Shown here: positions 3,428 to 64,000 of the stretch, one piece after another
How positions within the stretch are numbered: position 1 is the first letter of the stretch
Layout: each line of letters begins with the position of its first letter
DNA from: Arthrobacter sp.
GTDB taxonomy: Bacteria > Actinomycetota > Actinomycetes > Actinomycetales > Micrococcaceae
DNA: 64,000 nt
NCBI RefSeq assembly: GCF_031179985.1
Contig: NZ_JAPSHJ010000013.1
Span: 12,710 to 76,709, forward strand
Direction: 5' to 3'
Position numbers and translations under genes: made by a program
The notes under the pieces: model-generated
Databases searched by the model: none
Told to the model about the DNA's origin: nothing
Seen by the model: the letters and a program-made list of their open reading frames with translations, nothing else

Positions 3428-3437
3428 TTTGTGCTCC

Positions 3438-47461: not shown

Positions 47462-47592
47462 CCCGTCATCAGGTCGGGAACCACCTGTCCATGCAGAGAC
47501 AGTAATGTTCACAACTACTTGTTTTTTTCGGTGGCAAACAAGCGAGGCATGAGTACACCTGTTCTTCCTACTTCGGCAACTACTGGGAAATG

Positions 47593-47607
47593 GAGTACTT
47601 CGTACTC
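47593..47607. promoter_or_regulatory. GAGTAC-N3-GTACTC palindrome, candidate operator upstream of LuxR copy 3
   Basis: Perfect 6-3-6 inverted repeat; extra (C/G)TACT half sites nearby; TAAGTT -10 at 47631-47636. Confidence 0.45.
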
Positions 47608-47679
47608 GTGTCCATGGTCAAGGACTTTCGTAAGTTGGGGGTTAGCACGGGCCCCTAACGGGATACGAAGGACTTCACC

Positions 47680-50373
47680 ATGATTCATTCAGACGCCGCC
47701 ACTCTCCCCGGCCTCAGACGCCCACAGGTTTTGCAGGGCGAGCACGTCCCCAACGGCATGTCGGCGTACTGCAGAAAGCCCTTGGTGGATGAGGTTCTGG
47801 CGGCTCTGGCGCAGGGCCAGAACCTCGGCGTGGTCTTGGTGGGGACCTACGGGACAGGAAAGACCTATCTGGCGCGGCAGGCGCTCGATCGACTCGACGG
47901 GCAGGCCTTCGTTGTTCAAATCCGGGGGAGTTCCGCCGCTGATGCCATGCCATACGGCGCCCTGAGTTCGTTGTTGTGCGAACTGGATGAAGACCTGGTC
48001 ACCAGCCCATTGGCCGTACTCAGGGGAATAACGCAACTTCTGCGGCGCAGGGCGGACGGAAAGAGCATCCTCGTGTTTGTGGACAACGTCCAGGACCTCG
48101 ATGAACTTGCCGCAGTGGTCCTCACCCAGCTGGCGGCCAACGGAACGGTGCAGCTCGTCGTCACCTGCCAGGATCTGCCCAAGGCTCCACGTGGGATCGT
48201 GGGGCTGTGGAAGGACGGATTGTTGCACCGCGTGGATGTACGCCCCTTCAGCCAGCCGGACGTAGCGCAGTGGCTGGAAGCAACGCTTGGCGGACCCGTA
48301 TCATTGGCCTGCAGCGAGGTGCTGTACAACGCCAGCGGCGGGAACCCACGCTTTCTGGAAGCCATCCTGCACGAGCAGACCCGGGCGGCCACTCTGGTGC
48401 ATTCCGACGGCGTCTGGGTGCTGACGGGCAAGCCGCTTGCTTACAGCCGGACCATGACAGATACGGTCTTCACTGCCCTCAGTTCCATTTCCGCTGCTGA
48501 GAAGCACGTGACCGAAGTGCTGGCCTTGGCGGGAACCCTGACCCTTGACCATCTCATCAGCGTCAGCGATCCGGCGGCCATTGATGCCCTGCAGCAACGC
48601 GGGTACCTCACCGTAGTGCACGGCGATCCATCGTCGGTTTCCCTCACGAATGCGCTGATGGCCAACGTTGTCCGCAAAGAAGTACCGGCAGGCCGGAGCA
48701 GGGAACTCCTCGCCGGCGTCGTTGCTTGTGCAGATTTCTCCGTTATGCCCCCGTCAGCAGAATTATCCCTGGCCGCATGGGCAGCTGATTGCGGAATGCA
48801 ACTGGAGGCAGATAAGGCTCTCTACGCTGCAGGGCTGGCCAACCGTGCAGGAAACCCGGCCTTGGCCCTCCGCCTCATCGACTTGCTCCATGACCCGGCA
48901 GGGCGGGTTGCAGCTGTGGCGGAAAAGATCAGGGCACTCATCGGGTTGGGTGAGCTGGTGAAGGCGAGGAACCTCGCTTTGGACCCTGCCGCCGTCGCCG
49001 AAGCGCCCTTGAGGCGCTGGGTTGACATCATGCTGCTCCGAAGCGCATTGCTGTGCTCCGATGACAGACCGGAGGCAGATCCGCGTGCGCCGCTGGACGA
49101 AGTCCATGCCCGGCTAAAAGCGGAGGAATCGGGTTCAGACCCTGATGCCCACGGTCTGTTGGATATGCGCGAGGAGCTTTCATTGGCCCAGGCGCAGGTT
49201 GCCGTCCATGATGGCCGGTACCGGGAGGCTCTTTCAGGCCTGACGCGTCTCGTTGATGGTGCGCCAAGCACTGAAGGCCGCACGCTGGCCGCGAGCTTGC
49301 TTGCCGCCCTGTTGGCTCTGACCGGGCGCGGGGCCGAGGCATCATCGCTGATGAGGTCGGTACGGGCGTCGCGCTCAGAAATCGACGTACCGCTGCCTAT
49401 GCACACCTTGCCTGCCTCTGCCCTGTTGGGGTTGCTGCCGGCAGCGTCTACAGCCCACGACGCCGCGGCAGTTGCAGCCGGGTCCAACATCTTCCTGGCG
49501 GCACACGGCGCCACCTCACGGGAGCTTGGAACAGGTGTTCTGGACGCCTACTGCGGACGATCCGAACAGGCTCTGGAACGATTGATCCCCGCCCTGAGCC
49601 AGCTGAAGCAACTGGATCCGGACAGCACGTCCGCATTGGGAGCAGCCTCCATTGCCTACGCGTACGCTTTGCTGGGCGAAAAAGACCTTGCCTTGGAATA
49701 CCTGCAAACGAGCCAGCGGGAGCAAAAACGGACCTCGAGATGGGTACTGAGCGTCTGCTCCTACTTCCAGCTGCTGACCTCCGCTGAACTCGCTTCGAAG
49801 GAAAAGGCAATCGTGCGCCTGTTCGGGCTCGCGGATGAAGCCCGCAGCAGGCACGCCACCGCCCTGGAGCTGATGTTCCTGAGCGCAGCCGTGCGGTTGG
49901 GCAGTAACGGCGGGACTGAGCGCCTGGTGGCGGTTGCGTCCAGCGTCCAGAGCACTCTTGGCCGGCAATGCGAAGCGTATGGAACAGGAGTTATCAAGCG
50001 GAACAGTTCCGCGCTCCTTGAGGTAGCCAGGGAGGCCGCTACCGCAGGAAATGTGGTCTTCGCCAGGGACGCTGCTCGGGCAGCCCTCAAAATTGCGAAC
50101 GATGCTTCTGACAGGAACGCTATCAGGGCCGCGCAGCAGCTGATCCGGGGAGGTGCGCCGGCAGCAGCTGGAGGCGGACACGCGTCCCTGGGGGAGGGGC
50201 AACTGACGGCCCGCGAACATGAGGTGGCAGCCATGGCCGCCGCCGGTGTGAGCAACAAAGACATCGCAGCCAAAATGCATATTTCGGTTCGTACCGTTGA
50301 GGGCCATCTTTACCAGATTTACGGCAAGCTGCAGGTGACCTCACGGGCCGAACTCAGGGAATCATTTGCATAG
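47680..50373 (+). CDS. Large NTPase-LuxR regulator, copy 3
   Basis: GTYGTGKT, VFVDNVQDLD, SGGNP, LTAREHEVA..SNKDIA..SVRTVEGHLYQIYGKL. Confidence 0.93.
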   Translation: MIHSDAATLPGLRRPQVLQGEHVPNGMSAYCRKPLVDEVLAALAQGQNLGVVLVGTYGTGKTYLARQALDRLDGQAFVVQIRGSSAADAMPYGALSSLLCELDEDLVTSPLAVLRGITQLLRRRADGKSILVFVDNVQDLDELAAVVLTQLAANGTVQLVVTCQDLPKAPRGIVGLWKDGLLHRVDVRPFSQPDVAQWLEATLGGPVSLACSEVLYNASGGNPRFLEAILHEQTRAATLVHSDGVWVLTGKPLAYSRTMTDTVFTALSSISAAEKHVTEVLALAGTLTLDHLISVSDPAAIDALQQRGYLTVVHGDPSSVSLTNALMANVVRKEVPAGRSRELLAGVVACADFSVMPPSAELSLAAWAADCGMQLEADKALYAAGLANRAGNPALALRLIDLLHDPAGRVAAVAEKIRALIGLGELVKARNLALDPAAVAEAPLRRWVDIMLLRSALLCSDDRPEADPRAPLDEVHARLKAEESGSDPDAHGLLDMREELSLAQAQVAVHDGRYREALSGLTRLVDGAPSTEGRTLAASLLAALLALTGRGAEASSLMRSVRASRSEIDVPLPMHTLPASALLGLLPAASTAHDAAAVAAGSNIFLAAHGATSRELGTGVLDAYCGRSEQALERLIPALSQLKQLDPDSTSALGAASIAYAYALLGEKDLALEYLQTSQREQKRTSRWVLSVCSYFQLLTSAELASKEKAIVRLFGLADEARSRHATALELMFLSAAVRLGSNGGTERLVAVASSVQSTLGRQCEAYGTGVIKRNSSALLEVAREAATAGNVVFARDAARAALKIANDASDRNAIRAAQQLIRGGAPAAAGGGHASLGEGQLTAREHEVAAMAAAGVSNKDIAAKMHISVRTVEGHLYQIYGKLQVTSRAELRESFA

Positions 50374-51718
50374 CTGACGGAGTCCGACGGAGACTGAGGG
50401 CATCCATGATGGCGGCAACGGCTGCATCCACGCCGACTTCAGCCGTGTTGATGACCAGATCCGCATCAGCCGGCACTTCATAGGGCGAGCTGATTCCGGT
50501 AAATTCCGGAATCTGGCCAGCCCGGGCCCGTGCATAGAGTCCTTTCCTGTCCCGCGCTTCGCACACACTCAGCGGAGTGGACACATGGACCAGGATGAAG
50601 GAGCCCGCCGGAGCCATCGCCCGCACTTCCCGTCGGGTGGAATCAAACGGCGCAATGGGCGCACACACGGCGTCGCCCCCGGAAGCAGCAATCAGCGAAG
50701 CGACCCAGCCGATACGGCGGATGTTCGTTTCCCTGTCCTCCTTTGAGAAGCCGAGCCCCGACGAAAGCAACCGACGGACATCGTCGCCATCGAGTAGTGT
50801 CACAGTCCTCTCACCTGCCGCCTGCAGCCGTTGCGCGAGGGCTCGGGCGATGGTCGATTTTCCCGATCCTGAGAGCCCGGTGAAGAAGACGACGCTACCC
50901 GTAGTGCTGCCTGCCCCCGTGTTGCCCGATACCGGGTGGGCGGGGAGTGACTGGCTTGGGATTGACTGGTTTGGCATTGCCTGGCTTGGACGATGGCCGA
51001 AGCGCGCATGGTCGATGCCGGCCTGTGGCTCATCCGGGACTGTGAAGTCCAGAAGTACATTGGCGCCAAGGTTTCGGAAGACGAGCTCCTGGATCAGCTC
51101 GTCCTCCCGATTGCCCGAACGGGCCGGCGACCGGAGCACCAACAGCCTGGAACTGGAACCGGGAACTTCAGCGGCGCATTGCTCAAGGACAGTCATCAAC
51201 TCCAGCGCTGTATACCGCCCGTGCTGCTGCGGACCGGTAACAGCCACCAGGCAGAGGTCTGCGTTGCGGCTTGCGGCGACGGAAACTGCGCGGGCCATCT
51301 GGGCTGCCAGCGGGGGCTTGGAGAAGGCGGACACAACGAACTTCCGGCCAGCAGCGGAAGCCAGTGGTTCTGTTATGCGCAAGTGTCTGAGAGGCGGATG
51401 CTCTGCTGCCTTAAGCGGGCTCAAGGCCCCTGCGAGGTAGATTCCCGTCCCCGGAGCTGACTCGAAGCCGGAAACTGTCAGGAGGGCCAGGGGGGTGCCG
51501 TCCGGATCGCATAGCAGCAGCGCAGATTCCCGTACGGCGCGTTCGCCCACCGAACGGGGCAGCAACAAGGTCACCGCGGTGGGCCAACGGACCGGAACAC
51601 TGGAGGGCAGGCAGTATCCGTGGGCGGGAGCGTACAAGCCACCCAGAAGGAGCTCAAGCTCATCCAAGGCACCGTCCGAAAGTACGTGCCACGGAAGGGC
51701 GCCCGCATGGGGGGTCAT
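50354..51718 (-). CDS. cysC: Adenylyl-sulfate kinase with an N-terminal degenerate Sat-type ATP-sulfurylase region
   Basis: C-terminal FFTGLSGSGKST, LLDGDDVR, GFSKEDRETNIRRIG, CEARDRKGLY, FTGISSPYEVP; N-terminal LDELELLLGG.YAP..CDPDGTPLALL PUA-like segment. Confidence 0.9.
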   Translation of the reverse strand: MTPHAGALPWHVLSDGALDELELLLGGLYAPAHGYCLPSSVPVRWPTAVTLLLPRSVGERAVRESALLLCDPDGTPLALLTVSGFESAPGTGIYLAGALSPLKAAEHPPLRHLRITEPLASAAGRKFVVSAFSKPPLAAQMARAVSVAASRNADLCLVAVTGPQQHGRYTALELMTVLEQCAAEVPGSSSRLLVLRSPARSGNREDELIQELVFRNLGANVLLDFTVPDEPQAGIDHARFGHRPSQAMPNQSIPSQSLPAHPVSGNTGAGSTTGSVVFFTGLSGSGKSTIARALAQRLQAAGERTVTLLDGDDVRRLLSSGLGFSKEDRETNIRRIGWVASLIAASGGDAVCAPIAPFDSTRREVRAMAPAGSFILVHVSTPLSVCEARDRKGLYARARAGQIPEFTGISSPYEVPADADLVINTAEVGVDAAVAAIMDALSLRRTPSAMQMIP

Positions 51719-52689
51719 GGCTGCCTCTCCATCGAGTGGAGGGTGTGAGTTGCCGATGGTGCTGCGCTGCGGCGTTGGCGCATCTCGCTCGTGGCCAGGG
51801 CGGGAAATCCTTTCGAACGCCGAATGGCCATCCAGACGAACGGCGCCACCAGGACTGCTCCTGCCAGTAATATGGCTGTGGGGAGCGTGTCCACTCCCAG
51901 CATTTTCAGGCCGGAGGCAAACAGGACCACTGCAAGCGCCCTGCGAATGAATCCGCCGTTAAGTCGGCTCGAGAGTTGTGCACCCAAAAAGACGCCCGGC
52001 ACGCTTCCGAGGATCAGGGGAAGCGTCAGTTCGAGGCTGAGCTCACCGAAAAGGGAATGACTGACGGCGGCGGCGGCCACCAGGGGGACAGCCTGTACAA
52101 GGTCCGTTCCTACCAGCTGACCGGCTTTCAGCCCCGGATAAATCATCATCAGCCCGATGATAATGAGTGAACCGGAACCCACTGACGTCATCCCGACCAC
52201 CAGACCGCCGAACACGCCCAGGACTATGGTTACCAGGGGGCGGGCGGATATCAAGGGACGTGCGTGCGGAAGACCGGTGCCCTGTCCGCTCCGGCTTTTA
52301 GCCCGCTCCTGGAGCCTCAGGTACGCCCGGACTGCCAGGAGGCCAGCGGCAAGCAGCAGGGCCGCTCCCAGAGCTGTTTTAACTGTCGTCTGAGCGGCAT
52401 CTCCTGGTCCCAGCCATTTCAGGATCAACACACCGCTGAAGGCTGCCGGGACAGAGCCAATTATCAGCCACTTCACGAGCTCAAGGTTGACGGTGCCGCG
52501 GCGGAGGTGGACTGCCGATCCAACAGGTTTCATGACAGCGCTCGCCACCAGATCACTGGATACCGCAGCCAGGGGCGGAACCCCAAAAACCAGCACGAGT
52601 ACAGGAGTCATCAGCGCGCCACCACCCATGCCGGTAAGACCGACCACTATTCCCACGCCGAAGGCGGCGAACACCAGCATCATGTCCAT
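51715..52689 (-). CDS. TauE/SafE-family (sulfite/sulfate) permease
   Basis: VGLTGMGGGALMTPVLV, AVSSDL, GMTSVGSGSL, LVGTDL.QAVPL, GSVPGV.LGA; start uncertain. Confidence 0.92.
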   Translation of the reverse strand: MDMMLVFAAFGVGIVVGLTGMGGGALMTPVLVLVFGVPPLAAVSSDLVASAVMKPVGSAVHLRRGTVNLELVKWLIIGSVPAAFSGVLILKWLGPGDAAQTTVKTALGAALLLAAGLLAVRAYLRLQERAKSRSGQGTGLPHARPLISARPLVTIVLGVFGGLVVGMTSVGSGSLIIIGLMMIYPGLKAGQLVGTDLVQAVPLVAAAAVSHSLFGELSLELTLPLILGSVPGVFLGAQLSSRLNGGFIRRALAVVLFASGLKMLGVDTLPTAILLAGAVLVAPFVWMAIRRSKGFPALATSEMRQRRSAAPSATHTLHSMERQP

Positions 52690-53115
52690 AAGAGCAGATT
52701 TTGTCACTGCAGGGACCCGCCGGAAATGCGTAGGGGCGGTAGGGAAAGGCAGTACTTTCGGCGGGGGAACAAGTAGTGTCTGCAGCGCTTTCCACAACCC
52801 GGGCGGCGCCGGGCAGACCCGCTCACAGCGCTTCGAAACACTAAATCAGAAGCTCGGCAGAACCAACAGGTAGTTCCCGGATCCACTGTGCCGGCAGACA
52901 GGTAATAGCGGCCCCCGAGTGCGTAAGCAGCCCCCCAAAGACGAGTATGGGCTACCCATGTGCGCCAACGCCGGCCCGCCTACGCTTTTGGTATCAAGTC
53001 ATCCACGCACCGGGTCCGAAGCAGGTCTCACAATGCGCACCAGTAACCCTTTTTCCCCTTTCCTTCCGGTCACTCCCGAAATCGCCCCGCACAGCAATCT
53101 GCGGGTCCCCAGGAC

Positions 53116-53210: not shown

Positions 53211-54758
53211 ATGAGTCCATTGGACGAATCCGCTTTCATGGGCCCGGGCCTGAAACTGGGCCCACACCCGCACAGCTACCCGGAACGTGGCAGTTCACGC
53301 CTCGAGCAATCGAGCCAGCAGACCAAAACCACAGGCCTCAGATGGGCCGGCCGTTACCAGCGGATTCTGTTCCTGTCGGATGCGCTGGTGCTGGCCGTTG
53401 TTGCTGCTGCCGCCCAAGTGGGCAGATTTGGCTTTGACGACAGAGACGTTACGGTCGGATTTTTCGAAGTCGCCTACACCTACCTCTCCATCGGGATCGC
53501 AGCCGCCTGGATGGTGGTGCTTGGTATTTACCGCACACGTGATCCCCGGGTAGTGGGGGTTGGCGCCGAAGAGTACAAGCGCGTCATCAGCGCCACCGTC
53601 ACCCTGTTGGGGCTTGTGGCAATTCTTTGTGCAGTCCTCAAAATTGACGTGGCCAGAGGCTACTTCGCGCTCGCCTTCCCGTTAGGGATCGTGGGGTTGA
53701 TCTCCTCGCGCTGGATTCTGCGCCAGTGGCTCACCAAGCAACGGACATTCGGGCATTATTTGTCGCGCGTCATCGTCCTGGGCCGTGGAAAGGACGTCCG
53801 CTACGTCATCAACCAGATCCAGAAAAAATCAGGCGCTGCATATGAAGTGGTGGGCGCAGCGTTGCCACACGCGGAGGAAAGGGAATTCCTCATTACCGGA
53901 TCAGGTCCGGTTCCTGTGGTGGCCACCGTGGGCACAGTCGTGGAGGCGGTTGAGCGCCTTGAGGCGGACGCCGTGATTGTGGCAGGACCGGTCAAGGGCG
54001 GCAGCAAGTACGTTCAACGGCTGGGTTGGAAGCTGGAGGAATCCGCGACGGAACTGGTGCTGGCCACCGGGTTGACGAACGTGGCCGGCCCCAGAATCCA
54101 TTCCCGCCCGGTTGAGGGACTTCCGCTGATGCATGTGGAGCTTCCACGCTACTCAGGAGCGAAGCACGTCCTCAAGAGGCTCCTGGACATTGTTCTCTCC
54201 GCTATGGCCTTGATCGTCCTGCTTCCTGTTTTCGCGGTCCTCGCATTCCTGATCAAGCGGGACAGTGATGGCCCTGTGATCTTCCGTCAGGAAAGGATTG
54301 GCCAGGGCGGCAAGAAGTTCCTGATGTACAAGTTCCGGTCAATGGTGCAGACGGCCGAGGATGACCTTGCCGGACTTCTGGACCAGAACGAGGGCTCCGG
54401 TGTCCTGTTTAAGATGCGTCATGACCCACGCGTCACGGATGTCGGACGCTGGATGCGCAAATACTCGCTCGACGAACTGCCCCAATTCTGGAATGTGCTG
54501 CTGGGGGACATGAGCCTGGTAGGCCCGCGGCCGCCTCTGCAGCGGGAAGTGGATGGCTATAAGGCCCGTGTCCACAGGAGGCTTTACATCAAGCCAGGCC
54601 TGACAGGAATGTGGCAGATCAACGGACGGTCCGAGCTCAACTGGCAGGACAGCATCCGACTGGACCTCTACTACGTCGAAAACTGGTCACTTGCCGGCGA
54701 CATCATCATCCTGTGGCGGACCGTCAAAATGCTCATCAACCCACAGGGAGCGTACTGA
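53211..54758 (+). CDS. Priming polyprenyl-phosphate sugar-1-phosphate transferase (WcaJ/CpsE/WbaP family)
   Basis: N-terminal TMs, CoA_binding_3-like region, [76 protein letters not shown]. Confidence 0.96.
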
Positions 54759-55678
54759 TGAAGGGCATTCCGATCGATGTGACGCGGCTGACTTTGCTCG
54801 GGGAAATCGCAGCCGTTGCCGGGTCCAGGGCCGATGAAGAGCTGGCGCGCGAGCTGGCCACCGTCGCTGGATCGATGTTGCTCGCCTTCCGGGAATCCGC
54901 GGATGGGGCCGGCTTAGCTGCAGATGAACTGCGTGCTCAGGGTGACGCACGCGCCCAGAAACTGCTGAGCAAGGCCCTGCTTCAGCACCGGCCAGATGAT
55001 GCCGTCCTCTCTGAAGAGGCACCTGACGATCCGGCCCGCCTGTCCGCCCACCGGGTGTGGATCATCGACCCGTTGGACGGAACCAGGGAATTCGCTGAGG
55101 GTCGAAGCGATTGGGCTGTGCATGTTGCGCTGCACTCCCACGGGAGGTTGACCGCTGGAGCGGTTGCCGTTCCCGCATTGGGTTACGTCACTGGCCGCAA
55201 GGACGGGCTATGGGTACGGAAACCCGGCCGGCAGCTTCGAATCGCTGTTTCCCGGTCCCGGCCTCCCCAACTGGCGGAAGCCGTGGCTGGACGACTTGGC
55301 GCAAAACTCGAGCCGATGGGGTCAGCCGGGTACAAAACCTGCGCCGTTATCAGCGGGGAGGTAGATGCCTACCTGCATTCGGGCGGCCAGTTTGAGTGGG
55401 ATTCAGCGGCACCGGTTTTCGCTGCGCGCCAGGCTGGATTGCACGCCAGCCGGGTGGACGGTTCGGAGTTGCTGTACAACCAGAAGTCGCCGAGCCTGCC
55501 TGATCTGCTGATTTGCCACCCAGATATTCGCGACATACTGCTGGTGGCCATTGCGGACGTTCTGAAAGATCCGTCCGGCAGAGGTTCTTTGGCCCAGCGC
55601 GCATCAGGAGAGCGTTCATCAGGACAGCGTCCGTCCGGACAGTCCCGCTATGGGAACGCACAGGACAGGAGAGGCTGA
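54758..55678 (+). CDS. cysQ: 3'(2'),5'-bisphosphate nucleotidase (PAP phosphatase)
   Basis: VLSEE, VWIIDPLDGTREF, DWAVHVAL, VSRSR, MGSAG.K, GQFEWDSAAP; TGATG overlap. Confidence 0.93.
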   Translation: MKGIPIDVTRLTLLGEIAAVAGSRADEELARELATVAGSMLLAFRESADGAGLAADELRAQGDARAQKLLSKALLQHRPDDAVLSEEAPDDPARLSAHRVWIIDPLDGTREFAEGRSDWAVHVALHSHGRLTAGAVAVPALGYVTGRKDGLWVRKPGRQLRIAVSRSRPPQLAEAVAGRLGAKLEPMGSAGYKTCAVISGEVDAYLHSGGQFEWDSAAPVFAARQAGLHASRVDGSELLYNQKSPSLPDLLICHPDIRDILLVAIADVLKDPSGRGSLAQRASGERSSGQRPSGQSRYGNAQDRRG

Positions 55679-56595
55679 TGACTCCCAAAGATCGGCCCAA
55701 GCGCAGGCTGACGCAGCTCGAAGTGCTGGAGTCGGAGGCGATCTTCATCATCCGCGAAGTGGTCGCCGAGACGGACAATCCGGCGATGCTGTTCTCCGGA
55801 GGCAAGGACTCCATGGTGATGCTCCATCTCGCCGTGAAGGCCTTCGCCCCAGGATCCGTGCCGTTTTCCCTCCTTCACGTGGATACCGGGCACAACTTTC
55901 CGGAAGTTCTGGAGTTCAGGGACCGCTGTGTAGGTAAGTACTTGCTGAACCTCGTGGTGGCCTCTGTCCAGGACGCATTGGACCGCGGCATAGTTCACCA
56001 AGAACCGAACGGCTCGCGCAACAGAATCCAAACGCCTGTGCTGCTCGAAACTGCGCAGAAGAACGGGTTCACCGCATTGCTGGGCGGCGCACGCCGGGAT
56101 GAAGAAAAGGCCCGTGCGAAGGAACGTGTATTTTCGTTCCGGGACGAGTTTGGGCAGTGGGATCCGAAAAACCAGCGCCCCGAGCTGTGGAGCATCTTCA
56201 ACGCCGAGGTCCACCAAGGTGAAAGCATCAGGGTGTTTCCGCTCTCCAACTGGACCGAACTGGACGTCTGGGACTACATCCGCCAAGAGGGCATTGATCT
56301 TCCGTCGATCTACTACGCGCACGAGCGGGAAGTCTTCGAACGCGGGGGCATGCTGTTTGCGGCCAACGAATTCTGCAGGCCTAAAAACGACGAGCCCACG
56401 TCAGTGCAAAAAGTCAGGTACCGGACAGTCGGCGATGCGACCCTGACGGCTGCTGTCCGCTCCGATGCCGACACCGTGGACAAGGTGGTAGCTGAGATAG
56501 CAACCACCCGGATCACGGAGCGCGGTGCGACCCGGGGAGATGACCGCGTCGGTGCAGCGGCCATGGAGGACCGGAAGAAAGAAGGCTACTTCTAA
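55678..56595 (+). CDS. cysD: Sulfate adenylyltransferase subunit 2
   Basis: LESEAIFIIREV, FSGGKDS, HVDTGHNF, GGARRDEEKARAKER, PELW, RVFPLSNWTE, RYRTVGD, MEDRKKEGYF. Confidence 0.98.
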   Translation: MTPKDRPKRRLTQLEVLESEAIFIIREVVAETDNPAMLFSGGKDSMVMLHLAVKAFAPGSVPFSLLHVDTGHNFPEVLEFRDRCVGKYLLNLVVASVQDALDRGIVHQEPNGSRNRIQTPVLLETAQKNGFTALLGGARRDEEKARAKERVFSFRDEFGQWDPKNQRPELWSIFNAEVHQGESIRVFPLSNWTELDVWDYIRQEGIDLPSIYYAHEREVFERGGMLFAANEFCRPKNDEPTSVQKVRYRTVGDATLTAAVRSDADTVDKVVAEIATTRITERGATRGDDRVGAAAMEDRKKEGYF

Positions 56596-57842
56596 TGGAT
56601 CTCTTGAGATTTGCCACGGCGGGATCCGTAGATGACGGCAAGAGCACCTTGATCGGACGGTTGCTCTATGACTCGAAATCCATCTTCACGGATCAGCTTG
56701 AATCCATTGAGCGGACCAGCCGGGCCATGGGTTCGGACTACACGGAACTGGCGTTGCTCACTGACGGGTTAAGGGCAGAACGTGAGCAAGGGATAACCAT
56801 CGACGTCGCCTATAGATACTTTGCTACGGCTAAGCGGAAATTCATCGTGGCGGACACACCCGGACATATCCAGTACACACGGAACATGGTGACCGGGGCA
56901 TCCACCGCCGACATGGCTATTATGCTCGTCGATGCGCGGAAGGGGCTGCAGGAGCAAAGCCGGCGCCATGCATTCCTTGTCTCGCTGCTGAAAGTGCCGC
57001 ACCTGGTGCTTGCCATAAACAAGATGGATCTCGTTGCCTGGTCTCAGGACGTCTTTGAGGATATCCGGCATGACTTCGTGGAATTCGCCGCCAAGCTCGA
57101 TATTCCTGACCTGACGGTCATACCGCTTTCCGCCCTCACCGGTGACAACGTGGTGAGCCGCTCAGAGAATATGCCCTGGTACCAGGGAACGTCGCTGATG
57201 ACCCATCTGGAGAACGTTTACATAGCCAGTGACAGGAATTTGGTGGATGGCCGGTTCCCTGTCCAATACGTGATCCGGCCCCATTCAAACCGCTTCCCCG
57301 ATTACCGCGGGTACGCGGGGAAGATCGCCGGCGGAGTCATGCGCATCGGCGATGAGGTGGTGGTCCTGCCCAGCGGGCTTCCGTCGCGCATCGCCTCGAT
57401 CGAGTCCGCAAGCGGACCTGTCAACGAAGCGTTCGCTCCAATGTCCGTCGTCGTGCGGCTCGAGGACGACATTGATATCTCACGCGGGGACATGATTTGC
57501 AGACCGCACAACCAGCCAAAAGTCTCGCAGGATATTGACGCGATGATCTGTTGGATGAGCGAGGAGCCCTTGCGCCCGGGCCAGAAGCTGGTGGTCAAGC
57601 ACACCACACGGCGGGCGCGGGCACTCGTCAAGGACGTGCAGTACGAACTGGACATCAACACCCTGCACCGCAACGAACAGGCGGAGGAGCTCAAGCTCAA
57701 CTCCATCGGGAGGGTTCGGCTGCGCACCACCATTCCGCTTCTTGCGGATGAGTACCACCGAAACAGGGAAACAGGCGGCTTCATCCTCATTGATGAACAC
57801 TCCCTGCGAACAGTAGGCGCGGGGATGATCCTGTCCGTCTGA
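56595..57842 (+). CDS. cysN: Sulfate adenylyltransferase subunit 1 (GTPase), no fused CysC
   Basis: TAGSVDDGKSTLIGRLL, DGLRAEREQGITIDVAYRYF, DTPGH.QYTRNMVTGAS, NKMD, RFPVQYV, TGGFILID..TVGAGM. Confidence 0.97.
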   Translation: MDLLRFATAGSVDDGKSTLIGRLLYDSKSIFTDQLESIERTSRAMGSDYTELALLTDGLRAEREQGITIDVAYRYFATAKRKFIVADTPGHIQYTRNMVTGASTADMAIMLVDARKGLQEQSRRHAFLVSLLKVPHLVLAINKMDLVAWSQDVFEDIRHDFVEFAAKLDIPDLTVIPLSALTGDNVVSRSENMPWYQGTSLMTHLENVYIASDRNLVDGRFPVQYVIRPHSNRFPDYRGYAGKIAGGVMRIGDEVVVLPSGLPSRIASIESASGPVNEAFAPMSVVVRLEDDIDISRGDMICRPHNQPKVSQDIDAMICWMSEEPLRPGQKLVVKHTTRRARALVKDVQYELDINTLHRNEQAEELKLNSIGRVRLRTTIPLLADEYHRNRETGGFILIDEHSLRTVGAGMILSV

Positions 57843-57895: not shown

Positions 57896-58399
57896 ATGAG
57901 AACAGCCAGGTATGGTGTCCGCAATCATCCCGTTGCGCCCGGAACCGAGAGGATTCTGCTGGTTGGATCCAGCGGCGGCCATCTCGCGCAATTGCTGGCC
58001 CTTGAACCCTGGTGGGCGCACCAATCGAGGGCCTGGGTAACCTTCAAAACGCCCGACGCCGAGTTCGGCCTGCGGAATGAGCAAGACGTCACTTGGGCAT
58101 ACTCCCCAACCACCCGGAACATCCCGAACCTGCTGCGGAACTCAAAACTGGCGTGGTCATTGATGCGGCAGTTCCGTCCAACCGTGGTGATCTCGACTGG
58201 AGCAGGAAGCGCCCTGCCCTTTTTTGCCCTTGCGAAGATGATGTCCACCACAACTGTGTACATAGAAGTTTATGACCGGGTAGACAGCCCCACGCTCACC
58301 GGAAGACTGTGCCGGCCATTTACCGACCTGATGTTGGTCCAGTGGCGTGACCAGCTGGGACTCTACCGTGACGCCCATGTACTGGGGAGACTGCTGTGA
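57896..58399 (+). CDS. Alg14/PssD/CpsF-family glycosyltransferase N-half (acceptor-binding)
   Basis: LVGSSGGHLAQL, WVTF..PD, PTTRNIPNL, VVISTGAG.ALPFF, VYIEV.DR..PTLTGRL, VQW. Confidence 0.93.
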   Translation: MRTARYGVRNHPVAPGTERILLVGSSGGHLAQLLALEPWWAHQSRAWVTFKTPDAEFGLRNEQDVTWAYSPTTRNIPNLLRNSKLAWSLMRQFRPTVVISTGAGSALPFFALAKMMSTTTVYIEVYDRVDSPTLTGRLCRPFTDLMLVQWRDQLGLYRDAHVLGRLL

Positions 58400-59691
58400 A
58401 CGAGGCTCCAGTACATGGCCAGCCGGACAATGCCTCCACTCCGAGAAGCATCAGTGTTCTTGTGGGTACTGACCATCACGAGTTTTCCCGGTTGGTCGAC
58501 TGGGCTGATGGTTGGGCAACCGAACATCCGCAGGACAAAGTCACGGTGCAGTTCGGCCACAGCCGGGCACCCGCTTCTGCCGAGGGGCACAGCTTCATGT
58601 CTCCTGCCGCGCTCGCCGAACTCATGGCCACGAGCGACATCGTTGTTGCGCATGGCGGACCTGCCACTATCTCCGGGGCGAGAGCTGCGGGGCACGTACC
58701 GCTGGTGCTGCCAAGGGATCCGGCCCTGGGAGAGCATGTTGACGATCATCAGCAGCGGTTCGCGAGCTGGTCCGCCCAGAGATCGTTGGTCACCAAGGTG
58801 GTATCGGTGCCGGAGCTGCAGGAACGGGTCTCGGCCTTGGCAGGGGAAGGTTCAGGGACCAAGAGCGGAAACCTCGATGGAGCGCGGCAGGGCGACGACG
58901 CGGCAAGCCACCTTCCGCTGCTCCTGGCGAAGGCGAGGACTGCAACCAACCGAGCCACTCCAGGCGCCCCCGTGGTTTTGTACGTCTCCGGCGCAAGTGC
59001 GGCGACGTCGTCGTACCTTTCCGCCCTCAGCCGTGCAGAAGGCGCCGTGATGCTGGGGGATATCGGGCAGCTATGGGAGCAGGGCATAGTCAAAAACGCC
59101 GGCTGCGCCTGCGGGGCGCCTTTTTCCTCCTGTCAGTTCTGGCTTCGAGTGGGGAAGGAGGCCTTTGGAGGCTGGGATGATGTGGACGTCCGCTCCATCA
59201 AACGGCTGGGGGAGTCCGTCAGGTCTGCTGGAAAACTGATGCTGGGGGTCCTGCCCTTTGAACCTCCGTTGCTCCGCCGACAGCTCGCTGAGCACTCGTC
59301 GTACTACCTTGCTCTGTTCCGGGCAGTGCAGGACATCACCGGCGGGAAGGTGCTGGTGTGTTGCGGTGCGGACCCTGTTCTGGCTTTCGCCTTGAGCCAC
59401 AACCGTGAAATTGATGTGCGGATTCTGTATCTGGCTGGAAGGCCGGGCCGGCCAGTGATCAGCGACGACGTCCCCGGTTCGTTAGCCGCGAGATGGCTGT
59501 CCTCGAGGATGGGGGCACAATTCCTCAGGATGCGTCACGTTCCCCGCGCCGTCATCGGGCGCAAGCGTTATCTGAACGACCCCTTGAAAGCACTGCACTC
59601 GGTGGGCCGAAAACTCGAGCTCCCCGATTCCTGGCCCGTTCAAGGCGCTCCCCAGGAGTTCCATCCCCTTCTGCGAGAGGACCTGCCGTGA
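58396..59691 (+). CDS. Fusion: Alg13/PssE/CpsG GT28 C-half plus a degenerate sulfotransferase-like domain
   Basis: VLVGTDHHEFSRL..VQFG..VVAHGGPATI..PR....GEHVDDHQ (PssE); from aa ~193 VVLYVSG..GDIGQLWEQG..CACGAPFSSCQFW..AFGGW..YYLALFRAVQDITGGKVLV. Confidence 0.8.
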   Translation: MNEAPVHGQPDNASTPRSISVLVGTDHHEFSRLVDWADGWATEHPQDKVTVQFGHSRAPASAEGHSFMSPAALAELMATSDIVVAHGGPATISGARAAGHVPLVLPRDPALGEHVDDHQQRFASWSAQRSLVTKVVSVPELQERVSALAGEGSGTKSGNLDGARQGDDAASHLPLLLAKARTATNRATPGAPVVLYVSGASAATSSYLSALSRAEGAVMLGDIGQLWEQGIVKNAGCACGAPFSSCQFWLRVGKEAFGGWDDVDVRSIKRLGESVRSAGKLMLGVLPFEPPLLRRQLAEHSSYYLALFRAVQDITGGKVLVCCGADPVLAFALSHNREIDVRILYLAGRPGRPVISDDVPGSLAARWLSSRMGAQFLRMRHVPRAVIGRKRYLNDPLKALHSVGRKLELPDSWPVQGAPQEFHPLLREDLP

Positions 59692-60596
59692 GCACGGTGT
59701 CGGTGATCATAGCCACGCGGGACCGCCCCGAGATGCTCAGGGAGGCGATCGCGGCGGTCGCTGGCCAGGCCTTCGACGGCGAGATTGAAATCATCGTGGT
59801 TTACGATCAGTCAGCCCCGGACACCTCACTCCAAGCATCAGAGGGCACCAGGCGTGTCAGGGTGATCAGCAACTCCCGCACCCCCGGCCTGGCAGGGGCC
59901 CGCAACAGCGGAATCCTTGCTGGCACCGGAGACTATGTGGCCTTTTGCGACGACGACGACTACTGGAAGCCCGGAAAGCTCGCGGCCCAGGTCAAACGGA
60001 TGGAGACCGATTCCGGCGTCGAGTTTGTCACGTGTGGAATTTCAGTACAGTACGACGGCGTCACTCACGACCGCCCGCTGGGCAGGGACATCGTGACCTT
60101 CGATGAACTGCTGCGGGACCGGCACACGGAGCTGCACCCCTCAACCTTTTTGATGCGGCGTTCAGCGGCAATCACTGGTTTTGGACTTGTGGACGAAGAG
60201 GTTCCCGGCGGATTCGGCGAAGACTACGAGTTTCTGCTCCGGGCCGCAAAATCCCACTCGATTGCCCATGTTCGTGAGGTTCTGGCGGTGGTTCGCTGGG
60301 GTGGACAGTCATTCTTCTTCAGGCGCTGGCAGACCATGTCCGACGGGCTGTCCTGCCTGCTCGACAGATTCCCGGAATTTGAAACTACACCTGCCGGCTC
60401 TGCCAGGATCCGGGGGCAGATTGCCTTCGCGAACGCCGCTTTGAAGAACCGGCGGATTGCCCTCCTGTGGGCAGTGTCGGCCTTCAGGCGCAACCCCCTT
60501 GAACTGAGAGCGCCGCTGGCAATCGCCGTCGCCGCCGGGGTGCTGTCCCCGGACAGGGTGATGGTTGAGCTGCACAAGCGGGGGCGGGGAATCTAA
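59688..60596 (+). CDS. GT2-family glycosyltransferase
   Basis: VSVIIATRDR, VVYDQS, GLAGARNSG, AFCDDDDYW, EDYEFLLR; GTGA overlap. Confidence 0.93.
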   Translation: MSTVSVIIATRDRPEMLREAIAAVAGQAFDGEIEIIVVYDQSAPDTSLQASEGTRRVRVISNSRTPGLAGARNSGILAGTGDYVAFCDDDDYWKPGKLAAQVKRMETDSGVEFVTCGISVQYDGVTHDRPLGRDIVTFDELLRDRHTELHPSTFLMRRSAAITGFGLVDEEVPGGFGEDYEFLLRAAKSHSIAHVREVLAVVRWGGQSFFFRRWQTMSDGLSCLLDRFPEFETTPAGSARIRGQIAFANAALKNRRIALLWAVSAFRRNPLELRAPLAIAVAAGVLSPDRVMVELHKRGRGI

Positions 60597-60699: not shown

Positions 60700-61779
60700 T
60701 CAGTATCCAAACACCCGTTCCACCACACGTATCGAGGCCTGTCCATCGTCCAGCGGGCAGAAACGTGAGACGAAGGTCCGGTACCGCTCTGCATTGGCGC
60801 GGTGGCCCTCCTCCAGATTGCTCAAGGCGGCGCCCAGGGATTCGGTGTCCGTCACGATGGTTCCTGGCGCCCACTCCTCGTAGTCGTAGTACAACCCACG
60901 AACATTGTCCCGGTAGCGGGCCAGGTCGTAGGGGAAGAGAACTATTGGCTTTCCGGTGACTGCAAAGTCAAAAATGGCTGAGGAGTAGTCCGAGACCATC
61001 ACATCTGCCGCCAAATAAAGTTCGGCGATATCCGGGTAATTGCTGACGTCGAGAGTAAAGCCGTCGCGGCCAGGCGGCGCGCTCTTCACCACGCTGTGCA
61101 TGCGGTTGAGGATTACTGTTCCGGCAGGTGTTGTCTTCTGCAGCAGATCCAGGTCCAAGACCCCGGGATCCGTGAATTTCCCGTCTGGATGGGGAGAATC
61201 ATCGCGCCATGTGGGGGCGTTCAGGACCACCAGGGCGGAAGGATCCAGCCCAAGCTCCTTGCGTACTTCTTCCCTGATCCTTGGCGCTTCGGCCGACTTA
61301 AGGATGTCGTTACGAGGGTAGCCGGTTTCCAGCAACTCCCCATCAAATCGGAACGCACCCCTGAGAATGTCGGAGCTGCTGGGAGCTGGGGAGAGCAGGT
61401 AGTCCCATTTTTTGATGTCCCGTTCAAGCCGCTTCTGATGGGCGGCAGCGCCTGGGTAAGTCCTGAACTCCTCGTCGAAACCAATGGTCTTGAACGGGGT
61501 ACCGTGCCAGGTTTGGAGATACCTGACCCTTGGACCTTTGACCAGGTGTTTGCTGACGACATCATTGCTGATGAGGTAGTGGCAGCTGTACAGCCTCGCA
61601 AAGTACTCCGGGGTGTGCCGACGCACCCTGGCTACGCCGTCAGGCAAGCGGGTTGATTCGTCCGCCACCCAAACCAGTTTCAGATCGGGGCGGAGCTTTT
61701 GCAGGGCCTCGGAAATGGCCCGGGGGCTGTCAGCGTATTTTCCACGCCAGCTTTCAAAGAGAACGGTTTTCTGTTTCAT
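60700..61779 (-). CDS. TagF/TagB-family CDP-polyol:glycopolymer phosphotransferase
   Basis: FESWRG.YADSP, QTWHGTPFK.IG.D, GYPRND, APTWR, RMH, SDYSSAIFDF, CP.DDG.AS; both catalytic-type His motifs present. Confidence 0.92.
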   Translation of the reverse strand: MKQKTVLFESWRGKYADSPRAISEALQKLRPDLKLVWVADESTRLPDGVARVRRHTPEYFARLYSCHYLISNDVVSKHLVKGPRVRYLQTWHGTPFKTIGFDEEFRTYPGAAAHQKRLERDIKKWDYLLSPAPSSSDILRGAFRFDGELLETGYPRNDILKSAEAPRIREEVRKELGLDPSALVVLNAPTWRDDSPHPDGKFTDPGVLDLDLLQKTTPAGTVILNRMHSVVKSAPPGRDGFTLDVSNYPDIAELYLAADVMVSDYSSAIFDFAVTGKPIVLFPYDLARYRDNVRGLYYDYEEWAPGTIVTDTESLGAALSNLEEGHRANAERYRTFVSRFCPLDDGQASIRVVERVFGY

Positions 61780-63407
61780 ATCTCGTTCCTTTCAGGGGAA
61801 GGGGAGTCTTTTCTCGAGAGAATGGTTTTTAGTGTCGGCAGGCGCAGCTTCCCCCGCCAGAGCCACAGGAGAAACGCATACGCCGCACAGCCGGCTGCCA
61901 GGACGCCGAAGAACTCCCCCAGGTGCGTCCGCTGCAGCAGACTCAGGGTCAGCAGCGGGATTCCGAGGCAAGCCACATTGGCCACCGCTACCAGTGCCGA
62001 CCGCCAGCCGAATGGGTCCATGGCGAGGAGCTTCTTGACCCTCTCGAGAGTCAGTAAGTTCTTGAGTAAAACGGCGATGCCCCATGCAACCGCAGCACCG
62101 ACAATTCCCCACAGCGGAATGAGGATCAGGCAAAGACCGATATCCGCCGCCAAAGTAGTCAATGCAATCCAAAGACTGGTCCGGCTGCCGCCTGCCATCA
62201 ACAACAAGGTGTCCAATGGCCCGGCAGCAACGCCTGCAAGCATGGCGATACTCATCAGAATCACCACCGCTCCGGCACTTTCCACGTTGTAGCCTGCGCC
62301 GAAGATCATCAGGTAGAAGCCGCCCGCTGCCCCTGTGACCATGTAGAGCGGCCAGGCTACGGCCATGCTCCACGCTGTCGAGATCCGGAAGACGTCAGCC
62401 GCATCCGCATGGCGCCCTTTTGCAAGGAGTTGGCTGAACCGGGGTTGCAGGACCTGTTGAATTGCTTGGGTGGCGAACTGGCCCAGGGCCACGAACCGTG
62501 TTGCCGCTGTGTAGAGCGCCGCATCCTGCACAGACAGCAGGGCGGCGATCAGGATGATGTCGGAACGCTGAAGCAGGATCTGGCAAAGACGCGCAATTCC
62601 CCGCGGCCAGGTGAAACCCCAGAATTCCCGACGGACCATCGCGCGGTCATTCAGCGGCGCCGTGTGGTGATCAATACCGCGGCGGCGAAGCATTCTGCGG
62701 AAGATCAGGACCGATACCACGCCTGCAATGGCGTACGGGGCAACCCATCCGGCGGAGAGCAGGAGCACTCCGCCGCCAGCCAGGGCAGCCAGCCAAACGC
62801 TCAGCGGCTGCAGCATAGTGCGCAGGAACTTGTCGATCAGGACGGTGCTGCGTACCGTTCCGAAAGAGCGGGCACCTGCCAACGAAAAATCACCCCAGGC
62901 GGCCACCGGCAGGAGCAAGGCAAACATCAGCAGGACCAGGGAGCCTTGGGGAGTGTCCAGGCCGATCAAAGGTGCCAGTTGGCCGGCCAGAAGGGCAGTT
63001 CCCAGCGCCAGCACCAGGCTGGTCAGCAGGACCGGACGGAGGGCGACTGACAGACATTGGGAGATATCAGCAGTGCGGCCAGTCGCCTCGTACCGGAGCA
63101 TAAAGCGGGCCAGCCCGCTTTCAGTACCCAGGGAGGCGGCACCCAGCAATATCAGAAACGCAGATGATGCTGCGAAGAACATACCGGCAGTGGCCTGGTC
63201 ATAGAGTTGGGTGACCACCACGATGAGACCGAAGCCGAAAACCGCGGAAACGGCTGCCCCGAGGAGGTTGAACACTCCACTGCGTGCAATATGCGATAGC
63301 TGGGCGTCGACCGCTTCAGTGTTCGCCGCTTCACTGCCCACGAGCACTGGCACTGCTGGAGGCGACTGGAACTTTGGCAGCGGCGGGTCCCTCTGCTCCA
63401 TTTCCAT
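61776..63407 (-). CDS. Wzx-type (MOP superfamily) oligosaccharide flippase
   Basis: IARSGVFNLLGA, about 12-14 TMs, RSDIILIAAL..ALYTAA.R, LLLMAG, NL.LIP.WGIVGAA. Confidence 0.9.
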   Translation of the reverse strand: MEMEQRDPPLPKFQSPPAVPVLVGSEAANTEAVDAQLSHIARSGVFNLLGAAVSAVFGFGLIVVVTQLYDQATAGMFFAASSAFLILLGAASLGTESGLARFMLRYEATGRTADISQCLSVALRPVLLTSLVLALGTALLAGQLAPLIGLDTPQGSLVLLMFALLLPVAAWGDFSLAGARSFGTVRSTVLIDKFLRTMLQPLSVWLAALAGGGVLLLSAGWVAPYAIAGVVSVLIFRRMLRRRGIDHHTAPLNDRAMVRREFWGFTWPRGIARLCQILLQRSDIILIAALLSVQDAALYTAATRFVALGQFATQAIQQVLQPRFSQLLAKGRHADAADVFRISTAWSMAVAWPLYMVTGAAGGFYLMIFGAGYNVESAGAVVILMSIAMLAGVAAGPLDTLLLMAGGSRTSLWIALTTLAADIGLCLILIPLWGIVGAAVAWGIAVLLKNLLTLERVKKLLAMDPFGWRSALVAVANVACLGIPLLTLSLLQRTHLGEFFGVLAAGCAAYAFLLWLWRGKLRLPTLKTILSRKDSPSPERNEI

Positions 63408-63999
63408 TCTTCTTGCTGCCCGCCATCAGATTGCCGGAAGTCTTGGCGGGACGCGTCCTGGCCGGTTCCAAAACCACGGCTCCAAGCAGGTTCACGGATA
63501 GCTCCCGGCAGACTTCAACAGAACTGTTAAGGTCCGTGACCTTGGTAGAGCCATAGGCGATCTCAACAATGACGGATTTGAAAGTACTCGCCAACAGCTG
63601 GGCATTGGGGCTGAGCATAGGACCAGTGACGACCAGCACAACGTCTGCACGGTGCGCCAGCGAGCCAATCACCCCGATGAGCCGGGGGGTGACCCGGTGC
63701 TGTGCAGAGCCTGCTTCCCGGGAACCGCTGCCCAGGACCTGAAGCGTGGGTGACAGGCTCACCAATGTTTCGTCAACGGCGATATTCTCGTCCAGGAGGT
63801 CAGCCAGGCCTGGATAATCTGCCCGGACCAAGGGTGGCATGACCAGGCGGCCCGTCGTGTCTACAACGAGTGTCTTGATCCCTGCCTCTGCAAGCGACCA
63901 GGCGATTGAGACTGCAGAGAGCGGCTGCGCTGCGTCTTTACCGGCAGTACTCAACAGGATGACATTGCTCCGGTGAAGCCTGGTGAAGTCCAGGACGTT
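63331..63999 (-). CDS. Wzc/CpsD-like (BY-kinase fold) C-terminal domain, degenerate; gene begins beyond the window
   Basis: Frame open to the window edge (NVLDFTRLHRSNVILLSTAGK..); SIAWSLAEAGIKTLVVD, PGLADLL, L.VL.SG, DVVLV..GP, VIVEI..G.T, NLLGAVV. Confidence 0.75.
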   Translation of the reverse strand, partial: NVLDFTRLHRSNVILLSTAGKDAAQPLSAVSIAWSLAEAGIKTLVVDTTGRLVMPPLVRADYPGLADLLDENIAVDETLVSLSPTLQVLGSGSREAGSAQHRVTPRLIGVIGSLAHRADVVLVVTGPMLSPNAQLLASTFKSVIVEIAYGSTKVTDLNSSVEVCRELSVNLLGAVVLEPARTRPAKTSGNLMAGSKKNGNGAEGPAAAKVPVASSSASARGQ

Positions 64000-64000
64000 G

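Follow-up and report, generated by a model that had tools for sequence, protein, structure and literature searches.

The window analysed here, a stretch of 64,000 nucleotides (64 kb) from a contig (NZ_JAPSHJ010000013.1) of a soil actinobacterium, Arthrobacter sp., includes genes of a polysaccharide locus of the Wzx/Wzy type, primed by a Bac_transf enzyme. We focus on an open reading frame (ORF) at 58396-59691, whose product of 431 amino acids (aa) joins a PssE-type glycosyltransferase half to a degenerate sulfotransferase (ST) domain, referred to below as the pseudo-ST domain. Homologues whose ST domain is degenerate in the same way form what we call the dead clade. The ORF, its domains and its coupled neighbours are as follows; omega is dN/dS, and pLDDT is the predicted local distance difference test score of the AlphaFold2 models.

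57896-58399, forward strand: PssD/Alg14-like partner subunit, 167 aa (Pfam Alg14, E 1.5e-10; NCBIfam PssD, E 2.5e-30)
58396-59691, forward strand: the whole ORF, PssE-type glycosyltransferase half plus degenerate ST domain, 431 aa
58447-58851, forward strand: PssE/Alg13 (Glyco_tran_28_C) domain, aa 18-152 (Pfam, NCBIfam, Foldseek, alignment, omega)
58852-58965, forward strand: poorly conserved helical linker, aa 153-190 (AlphaFold2 helix at 160-182 with lower pLDDT; omega 0.06-0.36)
58966-59688, forward strand: putative pseudo-ST domain, aa 191-431 (hhalign, hidden Markov model (HMM), tblastn, AlphaFold2)
59688-60596, forward strand: translationally coupled GT2 glycosyltransferase, 302 aa (in some relatives fused to PssE-ST, protein P0129, or to PssE, protein P0116)

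The GTG start of the ORF overlaps the TGA stop of the upstream PssD/Alg14 gene by 4 nt (GTGA), and its own TGA stop overlaps the GTG start of the GT2 gene. Purine-rich ribosome-binding sites precede both starts (GGGGAGA, 6-12 nt 5' of the ORF start, and GAGAGGA before the GT2 gene). An earlier sequence-only reading of this DNA, made without database searches, had described the frame as intact and coupled to both neighbours, which the overlaps bear out. The positions it gave proved exact (58972 is V193 of VVLYVSG; 59104-59133 are C237-C246), and its assignment of the first ~150 aa to an Alg13/PssE domain agrees with the family models. The Glyco_tran_28_C model (PF04101) matches aa 19-150 with E 3.5e-9 (37.4 bits against a cut-off of 22), and the NCBIfam PssE model matches with E 1.5e-14. 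Because the latter score, 54 bits, is under the equivalog cut-off of 120 bits, the glycosyltransferase half is classed from its sequence as a member of the PssE/Alg13 family and as no equivalog or orthologue of characterised enzymes. The motifs HGGPAT and EHVDDHQQRF are invariant in this domain in the homologue alignment. The full-length AlphaFold2 model has pLDDT 86.9, and its top 50 Foldseek matches are nearly all GT-B C-terminal domains (MurG, CalG, UGT cofactor domains). Membership of the PssE/Alg13 type is indicated by the family model, the adjoining Alg14/PssD-type gene, the nucleotide-sugar-binding motifs and the GT-B C-terminal fold. The gene product is predicted to be the nucleotide-sugar-binding half of a split glycosyltransferase, with the upstream PssD/Alg14 protein as its partner.

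The C-terminal domain is less easily placed. No Pfam family was identified in the C-terminal 273 aa of the ORF even at E<=10, the domain alone gave no matches to PDB sequences, and the whole 431-aa protein gave nothing significant against the sequences of solved proteins (best E 0.12). Homology was therefore shown through relatives. A search of 5.8 billion proteins with the ORF returned 123 matches. In the precomputed Pfam annotation, the closest ~20 (417-487 aa, from Arthrobacter and Paenarthrobacter strains and from metagenomes) have PF04101 only, and the next ~90 (480-540 aa) have PF04101 together with PF13469 (Sulfotransfer_3), often with PF00685 as well. Stand-alone STs from the match list align to window positions 58954-59625 with E 4e-33 to 1e-23 (tblastn), and an HMM of the intact ST domains matches the ORF with E 6e-42 (model positions 4-165). 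A profile of the dead-clade domains aligns to the intact domains with a probability of 100%, E 1.8e-50, over 225 columns (hhalign). The series of homologues from intact to dead forms is continuous. The profile of intact domains matches solved STs (OLS ST 4gox, 6e-11; TPST1/2, ~4e-9; CurM ST 4gbm, 2e-8; SULT1A, 2e-6) in alignments that span the 5'-phosphosulfate-binding (PSB) loop, the GE catalytic motif and the 3'-phosphate-binding (3'-PB)/C-terminal region; the dead-clade profile found no solved ST at E<=10. Thus, the hhalign, HMM and tblastn results indicate common ancestry with sulfotransferases that depend on 3'-phosphoadenosine 5'-phosphosulfate (PAPS), as the Sulfotransfer_3-type pattern seen from 58972 onward had suggested. 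An exhaustive HMMER search with the window domain gave 2281 cluster representatives at E<=1e-3, of which 741 reach E<=1e-10; stand-alone proteins of 310-340 aa make up most of them. Tandem ST-ST proteins are present too, among them P0121 and P0122 (655-665 aa), each with two ST domains of intact appearance.

The domain-only AlphaFold2 model (pLDDT 85.6, predicted TM-score 0.86) has five strands alternating with helices in an order that fits the ST-type fold. Its best ST match in the PDB, TPST2 (3ap3), is weak (Foldseek E 1e-2, probability 0.99, TM 0.45), and the other weak matches include Stf9, Stf0 and tick TPST along with adenylate and guanylate kinases (E >= 2.6e-3, TM 0.40-0.45). The model is compatible with the sulfotransferase/P-loop-kinase class. 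On the question of a non-sulfotransferase origin, the profile-profile comparison supports an ST, and Foldseek gave only weak ST and kinase matches; the assignment of homology to the C-terminal domain is one made from sequence.

The motifs by which PAPS-dependent STs are recognised, and the elements that the domain retains, lie at the following positions.

58987-59013, forward strand: former 5'-PSB loop, aa 198-206, SGASAATSS against GxGRSGSTL, unconserved inside the dead clade
59104-59133, forward strand: retained Cys cluster, C237-x-C239-x6-C246, invariant or nearly so in 116 homologues
59164-59175, forward strand: retained FGGW motif, aa 257-260
59359-59370, forward strand: former DSSK motif with the catalytic Lys, aa 322-325, now CCGA (alignment)
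59395-59421, forward strand: SHNREIDVR block, aa 334-342 (alignment)
59431-59457, forward strand: former 3'-PB motif, aa 346-354, LAGRPGRPV against LVRDxRxVA, with a deletion next to it
59662-59664, forward strand: His423, the sole conserved residue of the shortened tail (100% in the dead clade, 94% in the intact clade)

Alignment with intact relatives showed each of the motif substitutions (PSB, DSSK and 3'-PB) quoted in the sequence-only reading. In the 5'-PSB loop, where positions are 100% conserved in the 87 intact relatives, GGxGRSGSTL has become VSGASAATSS. The DSSK region VVDSSKH now reads LVCCGAD, and LHLVRDxRxVAxSW of the 3'-PB region reads LYLAGRPGRPV, followed by the deletion. The C-terminal HxVxGNPMRF motif plus ~55 aa is shortened to EFHPLLREDLP. 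The catalytic Glu after the second strand (E222, aligned to the GE of TPST) is Asp here and D, E, N or Q across the dead clade, most members of which no longer have Glu; the catalytic Lys (K325) is Ala here and variable in the dead clade. PSB, DSSK, 3'-PB and GNPMR are absent together in 29 of the 116 aligned homologues and present together in the other 87. In the core dead clade (24 cluster representatives), ~40 positions that are at least 85% conserved in intact domains have been lost. These comprise G199, G201, R202, S203, G204 and T205 of the PSB loop; E222, H225 and R229; D322, S324 and K325; H345, R348, D349, R351 and S356 of the 3'-PB region; and the RYE and GNPMR blocks. Even inside the dead clade, the segments that once formed the PSB loop and the 3'-PB motif are unconserved, which argues against a rebuilt nucleotide site. 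With the Pfam model, PSB loop, 3'-PB motif and catalytic Glu/Lys all missing, these four failures mean that the C-terminal domain should not be filed as a sulfotransferase. The term pseudo-sulfotransferase, with all PAPS-binding and catalytic signatures lost, stands.

Other parts of the domain have been kept. The Cys cluster, noted as retained in the sequence-only reading, is present nearly throughout the alignment, and the dead clade shows no variation at more than 20 positions, the Cys/His set included. Residues common to the dead and intact groups are G221, W227, C237, C239, G240, F243, C246, W249, G253, A256, F257, G258, G259, W260, D264, G316, A330, L333, D340, R342 and H423. The best-kept part is a family-specific insertion (aa 221-264) between the first two strands and the central helices, which may shape the acceptor side. 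In the SHNREIDVR block, the dead clade has N336 without exception and S334, R337, E338 and I339 almost always, and D340 and R342 are shared with active relatives. We considered the SHNRE block as evidence for a new function and rejected it, as SHNRD already occurs in close intact relatives. Among intact relatives, the one nearest to the dead domain is a stand-alone ST of Arthrobacter sp. H14 (P0123; locus L012, 10001-11167; 42% identity), which already carries ALSHNRDIDLR; the extracellular polysaccharide (EPS) locus L012 also has a wzx-linked ST.

Selection on the domain was measured by pairwise Nei-Gojobori comparison with three close relatives (95, 87 and 81% identity; dS 0.17-0.9). Omega for the pseudo-ST domain (aa 191-431) is 0.10-0.22, with 0.10-0.18 in the core (aa 191-350) and 0.12-0.30 in the tail (aa 351-431). 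The glycosyltransferase half gave 0.035-0.06, and two genes of the same locus gave values similar to the pseudo-ST range (cysC, 0.13-0.17; cysQ, 0.12-0.15). There are no stops or frameshifts in six compared orthologues, the dead-clade proteins recovered are all full length, and the frame is intact across species with only ~40-50% identity. Where glycosyltransferase-domain identity is 0.6-0.7, the ST-domain identity of intact fusions is 0.62 and that of the dead clade 0.36. The constraint on the pseudo-ST domain is relaxed and it evolves faster than active ST domains, yet purifying selection is clear. Neutral decay, raised earlier as something that would count against a functional domain, is not what is seen across this genus-level clade. 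The domain thus has both marks of a pseudoenzyme: it is homologous to active enzymes and has lost their catalytic and cofactor residues, and purifying selection retains it. We found no RNA evidence of expression; the sequence was recovered only in soil and rhizosphere metagenome DNA runs.

The window domain, by its sequence relationships, descends from PssE-ST fusions with an active-looking ST, which are common in Actinomycetota (87 of the 116 aligned homologues). A neighbour-joining tree of the glycosyltransferase domain alone, without support values, places the core dead clade (Micrococcaceae) as a monophyletic group nested among intact fusions. Other dead forms (P0044/45, P0046/96 and P0110) are placed elsewhere on this tree, which suggests independent losses. 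Proteins of the dead clade are ~420-450 aa long and intact fusions ~480-540 aa.

A scan of species-representative genomes gave 80 loci, and the loci of relatives were viewed over +-10 kb. Dead-clade loci include those of three Arthrobacter sp. strains (H14-L1, YAF16 and Soil763), two Paenarthrobacter sp. strains (DKR-5 and Z7-10) and metagenome-assembled genomes (MAGs). At these loci cysQ-cysD-cysN lies directly upstream of pssD, after the Bac_transf gene wherever the contig extends that far, and cysC and a TauE permease are nearby, again where the contig extends. In two more dead-clade loci, L094 (STN4) and L095, the cys block is encoded on the other strand. The intact-fusion loci L029, L035, L039, L040 and L026 contain the same genes, arranged differently. 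Three of these (L029, L039 and L040) encode BacT-cysQ-cysD-cysN, PssD, PssE-ST and GT2, with cysC and TauE in addition at L029, and the intact fused ST is the only homologue of that ST subfamily detected there. This state is likely ancestral: PssD/PssE would add a sugar and the fused ST would sulfate the product. Further fusions, PssE-ST-GT2 (P0129, 761 aa; L013, 10001-12286), PssE-GT2 (P0116) and PssD-PssE (P0117), support PssD, PssE-ST and GT2 as a functional unit.

The sequence-only reading did not know the fused architecture as one already described. We found no paper describing a PssE-ST fusion or a bacterial pseudo-sulfotransferase, although the literature search was not exhaustive, and nothing specific on sulfated Arthrobacter polymers. 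The fusion itself is widespread, however. Because active-looking fusions are common, what is new is the dead clade with its context rather than the PssE-ST fusion alone.

A second degenerate PssE-ST group was identified in Nocardioides MAGs (L022, L024, L025 and L047), without nearby cys genes. At these loci a further ST of the same subfamily lies ~9 kb downstream, in some cases within an ORF that also contains a GT2-like segment.

The surrounding locus encodes production of PAPS and removal of adenosine 3',5'-bisphosphate (PAP), along with polymer export. APS is adenosine 5'-phosphosulfate.

50354-52680, reverse strand: APS kinase (454 aa) and TauE-family permease, divergent from the operon
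53211-54758, forward strand: priming sugar-phosphate transferase (Bac_transf), first gene of the operon
54758-57842, forward strand: cysQ (PAP phosphatase-like), cysD and cysN, with abutting or overlapping frames, between the priming transferase and pssD (omega 0.03-0.15)
60700-61779, reverse strand: TarF-like glycerophosphotransferase in the slot after wzx (Pfam Glyphos_transf, E 7e-96; NCBIfam TarF, E 7e-76)
61776-63347, reverse strand: Wzx-like flippase, 523 aa

The PAPS pathway (cysQ-cysD-cysN and cysC) is under purifying selection (omega 0.03-0.17). We surveyed these loci for stand-alone STs with the subfamily HMM, then with phmmer using seven Pfam-confirmed STs of related loci, and with Pfam. 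A canonical stand-alone ST was identified in sister lineages of the dead clade: Soil763 (L018), YAF16 (L015), the MAG locus L017, STN4 (L094) and L095. It is ~296 aa long, matches PF00685/PF13469 and carries the motifs GTKRGGTTS and LLRDPVERAYSH. At the loci with annotated neighbours it directly adjoins wzx (L018, 15398-16288; L094, 2861-3745; L095, 2138-3031), and the wzx-ST pair also occurs in the intact-fusion loci L007, L008, L012 and L013. The window belongs to a subclade with L010, L011, H14-L1, DKR-5 and Z7-10, in which a TarF-like gene follows wzx. Neither phmmer nor tblastn found a trace of the sister-lineage ST in the 64-kb window or in the loci of subclade relatives (+-10 kb), and the 120 closest homologues of this ST (>=62% identity) include none from the subclade strains. 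The TarF-like gene in the ST slot looks like a swap of the anionic decoration, from sulfate to glycerol phosphate. The idea that the fusion ties chain elongation to sulfation is therefore doubtful here, with no active ST recognisable in the window or within +-10 kb in relatives and a TarF-like glycerophosphotransferase in the slot next to wzx that holds the ST in sister lineages.

Several other proteins were considered as hidden STs and rejected. Those of 523, 545 and 736 aa, which have no Pfam matches, look Wzx-like, Wzz/BY-kinase-like and Wzy-like/polysaccharide co-polymerase-like, respectively. The N-terminal 270 aa of the APS kinase (50354-51718, reverse strand; kinase domain at aa 272-444) are weakly ATP-sulfurylase-like (PF01747, E 0.013), and may be a second degenerate domain of the sulfate module. 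The 545-aa Wzz/BY-kinase-like protein (63331-64000, reverse strand) runs past the window end and is complete in L001 (14936-16573). Its Walker A region reads STAGKDAAQ against GK[ST] and a C-terminal tyrosine cluster is lacking; the protein may regulate chain length as a pseudo-kinase. The 736-aa protein, past the window end (L001, 16686-18896, reverse strand), has a Wzy-like polymerase region (Wzy_C, E 4e-5), and its C-terminal part has, by eye only, the look of a polysaccharide co-polymerase.

The TauE gene is deleted in L010 (about 3400-4830) and L011 (about 4150-4800), where only ~45 codons of the window's long upstream-extended TauE frame (51715-52797) still match and cysC is intact over 454 aa. 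The deletion hints that part of the sulfate module is dispensable in L010 and L011. Directly upstream of the cluster (41917-50373, forward strand) are three consecutive regulators of ~900-950 aa (AAA_16 ATPase plus GerE/LuxR helix-turn-helix), the last of which is syntenic in all close relatives.

We give a probability of roughly 65% to the reading in which the pseudo-ST is a non-catalytic domain kept by selection as structural or glycan-binding support for PssD/PssE. The domain would no longer bind PAPS, and would persist as a non-catalytic module needed by PssD/PssE, whether for PssE stability, for assembly with PssD and the coupled GT2, or for holding the lipid-linked glycan. The sequence-only reading had put forward the conjectural roles of scaffold, acceptor-binding module and heterodimer partner. 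Three invariant Cys and a lone conserved His in a drifting tail suggest a structural Cys3His metal site of C237, C239 and C246 with His423 as the likely fourth ligand, and the folded body would probably be stabilised by zinc. In sister lineages, sulfation would be carried out by the separate canonical ST next to wzx. In the window lineage, the polymer would probably be decorated with glycerol phosphate, as the TarF-like gene occupies the ST slot.

Several points weigh against this reading. The conserved cysQ-cysD-cysN and cysC genes argue that PAPS is still used by something, and the only ST-like sequence at the window locus is the pseudo-ST domain itself. Loss of ST function is deduced from the sequence, and support from the ST fold is weak, with no Foldseek match of the domain model under E 1e-3. 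The tree was made from one domain by neighbour joining, and the dN/dS values are pairwise. A conserved PAPS pathway in a locus where no ST is recognised could mean that an ST is encoded elsewhere in the genome, that the cys genes now serve general sulfur assimilation, or that an unrecognised enzyme transfers sulfate.

Best surviving among the alternatives, if still unlikely, is that the domain is a docking platform for an ST encoded elsewhere, so that sulfation would remain coupled to the PssD/PssE step. The retained PAPS genes, the independent dead fusions in Nocardioides with a same-subfamily ST ~9 kb away and the stand-alone ST in sister Micrococcaceae loci all fit such a role. However, no ST was found in the 58 kb upstream or the 10 kb downstream, and the subclade strains are absent from the list of closest homologues of the sister-lineage ST described above.

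We attach a low probability to sulfate transfer by an enzyme not yet known as a sulfotransferase. It is conceivable because the operon makes PAPS yet has no recognisable sulfotransferase; the candidates might be the apparently dead domain acting via a rebuilt site, or the TarF-like transferase using PAPS or APS.

The more specific proposal that the domain is still the sulfotransferase of the cluster, binding PAPS or APS via a rebuilt non-canonical site, is lower still in our estimate. It gains from the conserved PAPS-making and PAP-clearing genes inside the same coupled operon, from the lack of any other recognisable ST in the window or in the loci of the closest relatives, and from the fused ST looking like the sole ST in the ancestral-like loci. 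Polar positions conserved specifically in the dead clade (D326, N336, R337, E338 and R294) could also be taken this way, but the SHNRE block is partly present already in intact relatives such as P0123. Moreover, the canonical PAPS contacts and the catalytic Lys are all gone, and the former PSB and 3'-PB segments drift within the dead clade, unlike a rebuilt binding site. Sisters within the dead clade carry a canonical stand-alone ST, implying that the fused domain was inactive in their common ancestor.

That the domain is a neutral remnant nearing deletion, with its conservation due to recent common ancestry, is very improbable and largely refuted. Scaled to the glycosyltransferase half, its divergence far outpaces that of intact ST domains, conservation is poor across the tail (aa 351-431), and the related dead forms P0046 and P0096 are shorter or lack the Cys cluster. 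Nevertheless, omega is 0.10-0.22 at dS 0.2-0.9, the frame is intact in every member at ~40-50% identity, and the more than 20 invariant dead-clade positions include the Cys/His set.

A chance resemblance of the C-terminal region to the ST pattern, for which the empty Pfam search and the weak Foldseek matches mixed with nucleotide kinases could be cited, is refuted by the tblastn (E 4e-33), HMM (E 6e-42) and hhalign (100% over 225 columns) results and by the unbroken series of homologues from intact to dead.

PssD/PssE of Rhizobium leguminosarum, Cps14F/Cps14G of Streptococcus pneumoniae and Alg14/Alg13 of yeast are split GT-B glycosyltransferases. As in these systems, the window has two adjoining genes, one Alg14-like and one Alg13-like; unlike in them, its PssE bears an extra, ST-derived C-terminal domain of ~240 aa. 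TPST1/2, CurM ST and OLS ST are matched by the intact fused ST domains of relatives (E 6e-11 to 2e-8), whereas the window domain lacks the PSB loop, catalytic Lys, 3'-PB Arg/Ser and C-terminal segment of these enzymes. To our knowledge, the CxC-x6-C...H cluster of this ST subfamily has no counterpart in solved sulfotransferases. The PssE-ST fusions of other Actinomycetota (Catellatospora, Mycobacteriales and Nocardioidaceae genomes and MAGs) share the architecture, with PssD upstream and GT2 downstream, and often the cysQ-cysD-cysN and cysC companions, and are annotated only as glycosyltransferase or sulfotransferase. They keep all PAPS and catalytic motifs, unlike the window clade, in which the tail is truncated.

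SULT4A1 is an atypical cytosolic sulfotransferase without known activity. The pseudo-ST domain resembles it and other pseudoenzymes, a general concept (PMC5106787), in its enzyme ancestry, missing catalytic and cofactor residues and retention by selection. It differs from SULT4A1 in being bacterial, in its fusion to an active-looking glycosyltransferase half and in its far more complete degeneration. Sulfated-EPS clusters with stand-alone STs include synechan xss of Synechocystis (PMC8205485); wps-1 of Actinoplanes missouriensis also has stand-alone STs, and sulfated EPS has been proposed in actinomycetes (PMC13390465). These two clusters are of the Wzx/Wzy type, as is the window locus, and pair glycosyltransferases with sulfotransferases. 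They have stand-alone STs only, with no PssE-ST fusion reported, whereas the window locus has PAPS genes and no recognisable active ST.

Few studies of bacterial sulfated polysaccharides reach beyond cyanobacteria, and their presence in actinomycetes is only a recent proposal (PMC13390465). Judging by the locus family described here, direct coupling of a split glycosyltransferase to a sulfotransferase may be a feature of many Actinomycetota. The family also forms a natural series, from the active fusion, through the dead fusion with a separate ST, to the dead fusion with a glycerophosphotransferase in the ST slot. Each state is represented in culture, with Arthrobacter sp. H14-L1 and Paenarthrobacter sp. 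DKR-5 and Z7-10 on one side and Arthrobacter sp. Soil763, STN4 and YAF16 on the other. The series is suited to asking what uses up PAPS when a cluster has no recognisable ST, how anionic decorations, sulfate and glycerol phosphate, are exchanged in evolution, and what a pseudo-sulfotransferase domain contributes to a glycosyltransferase.

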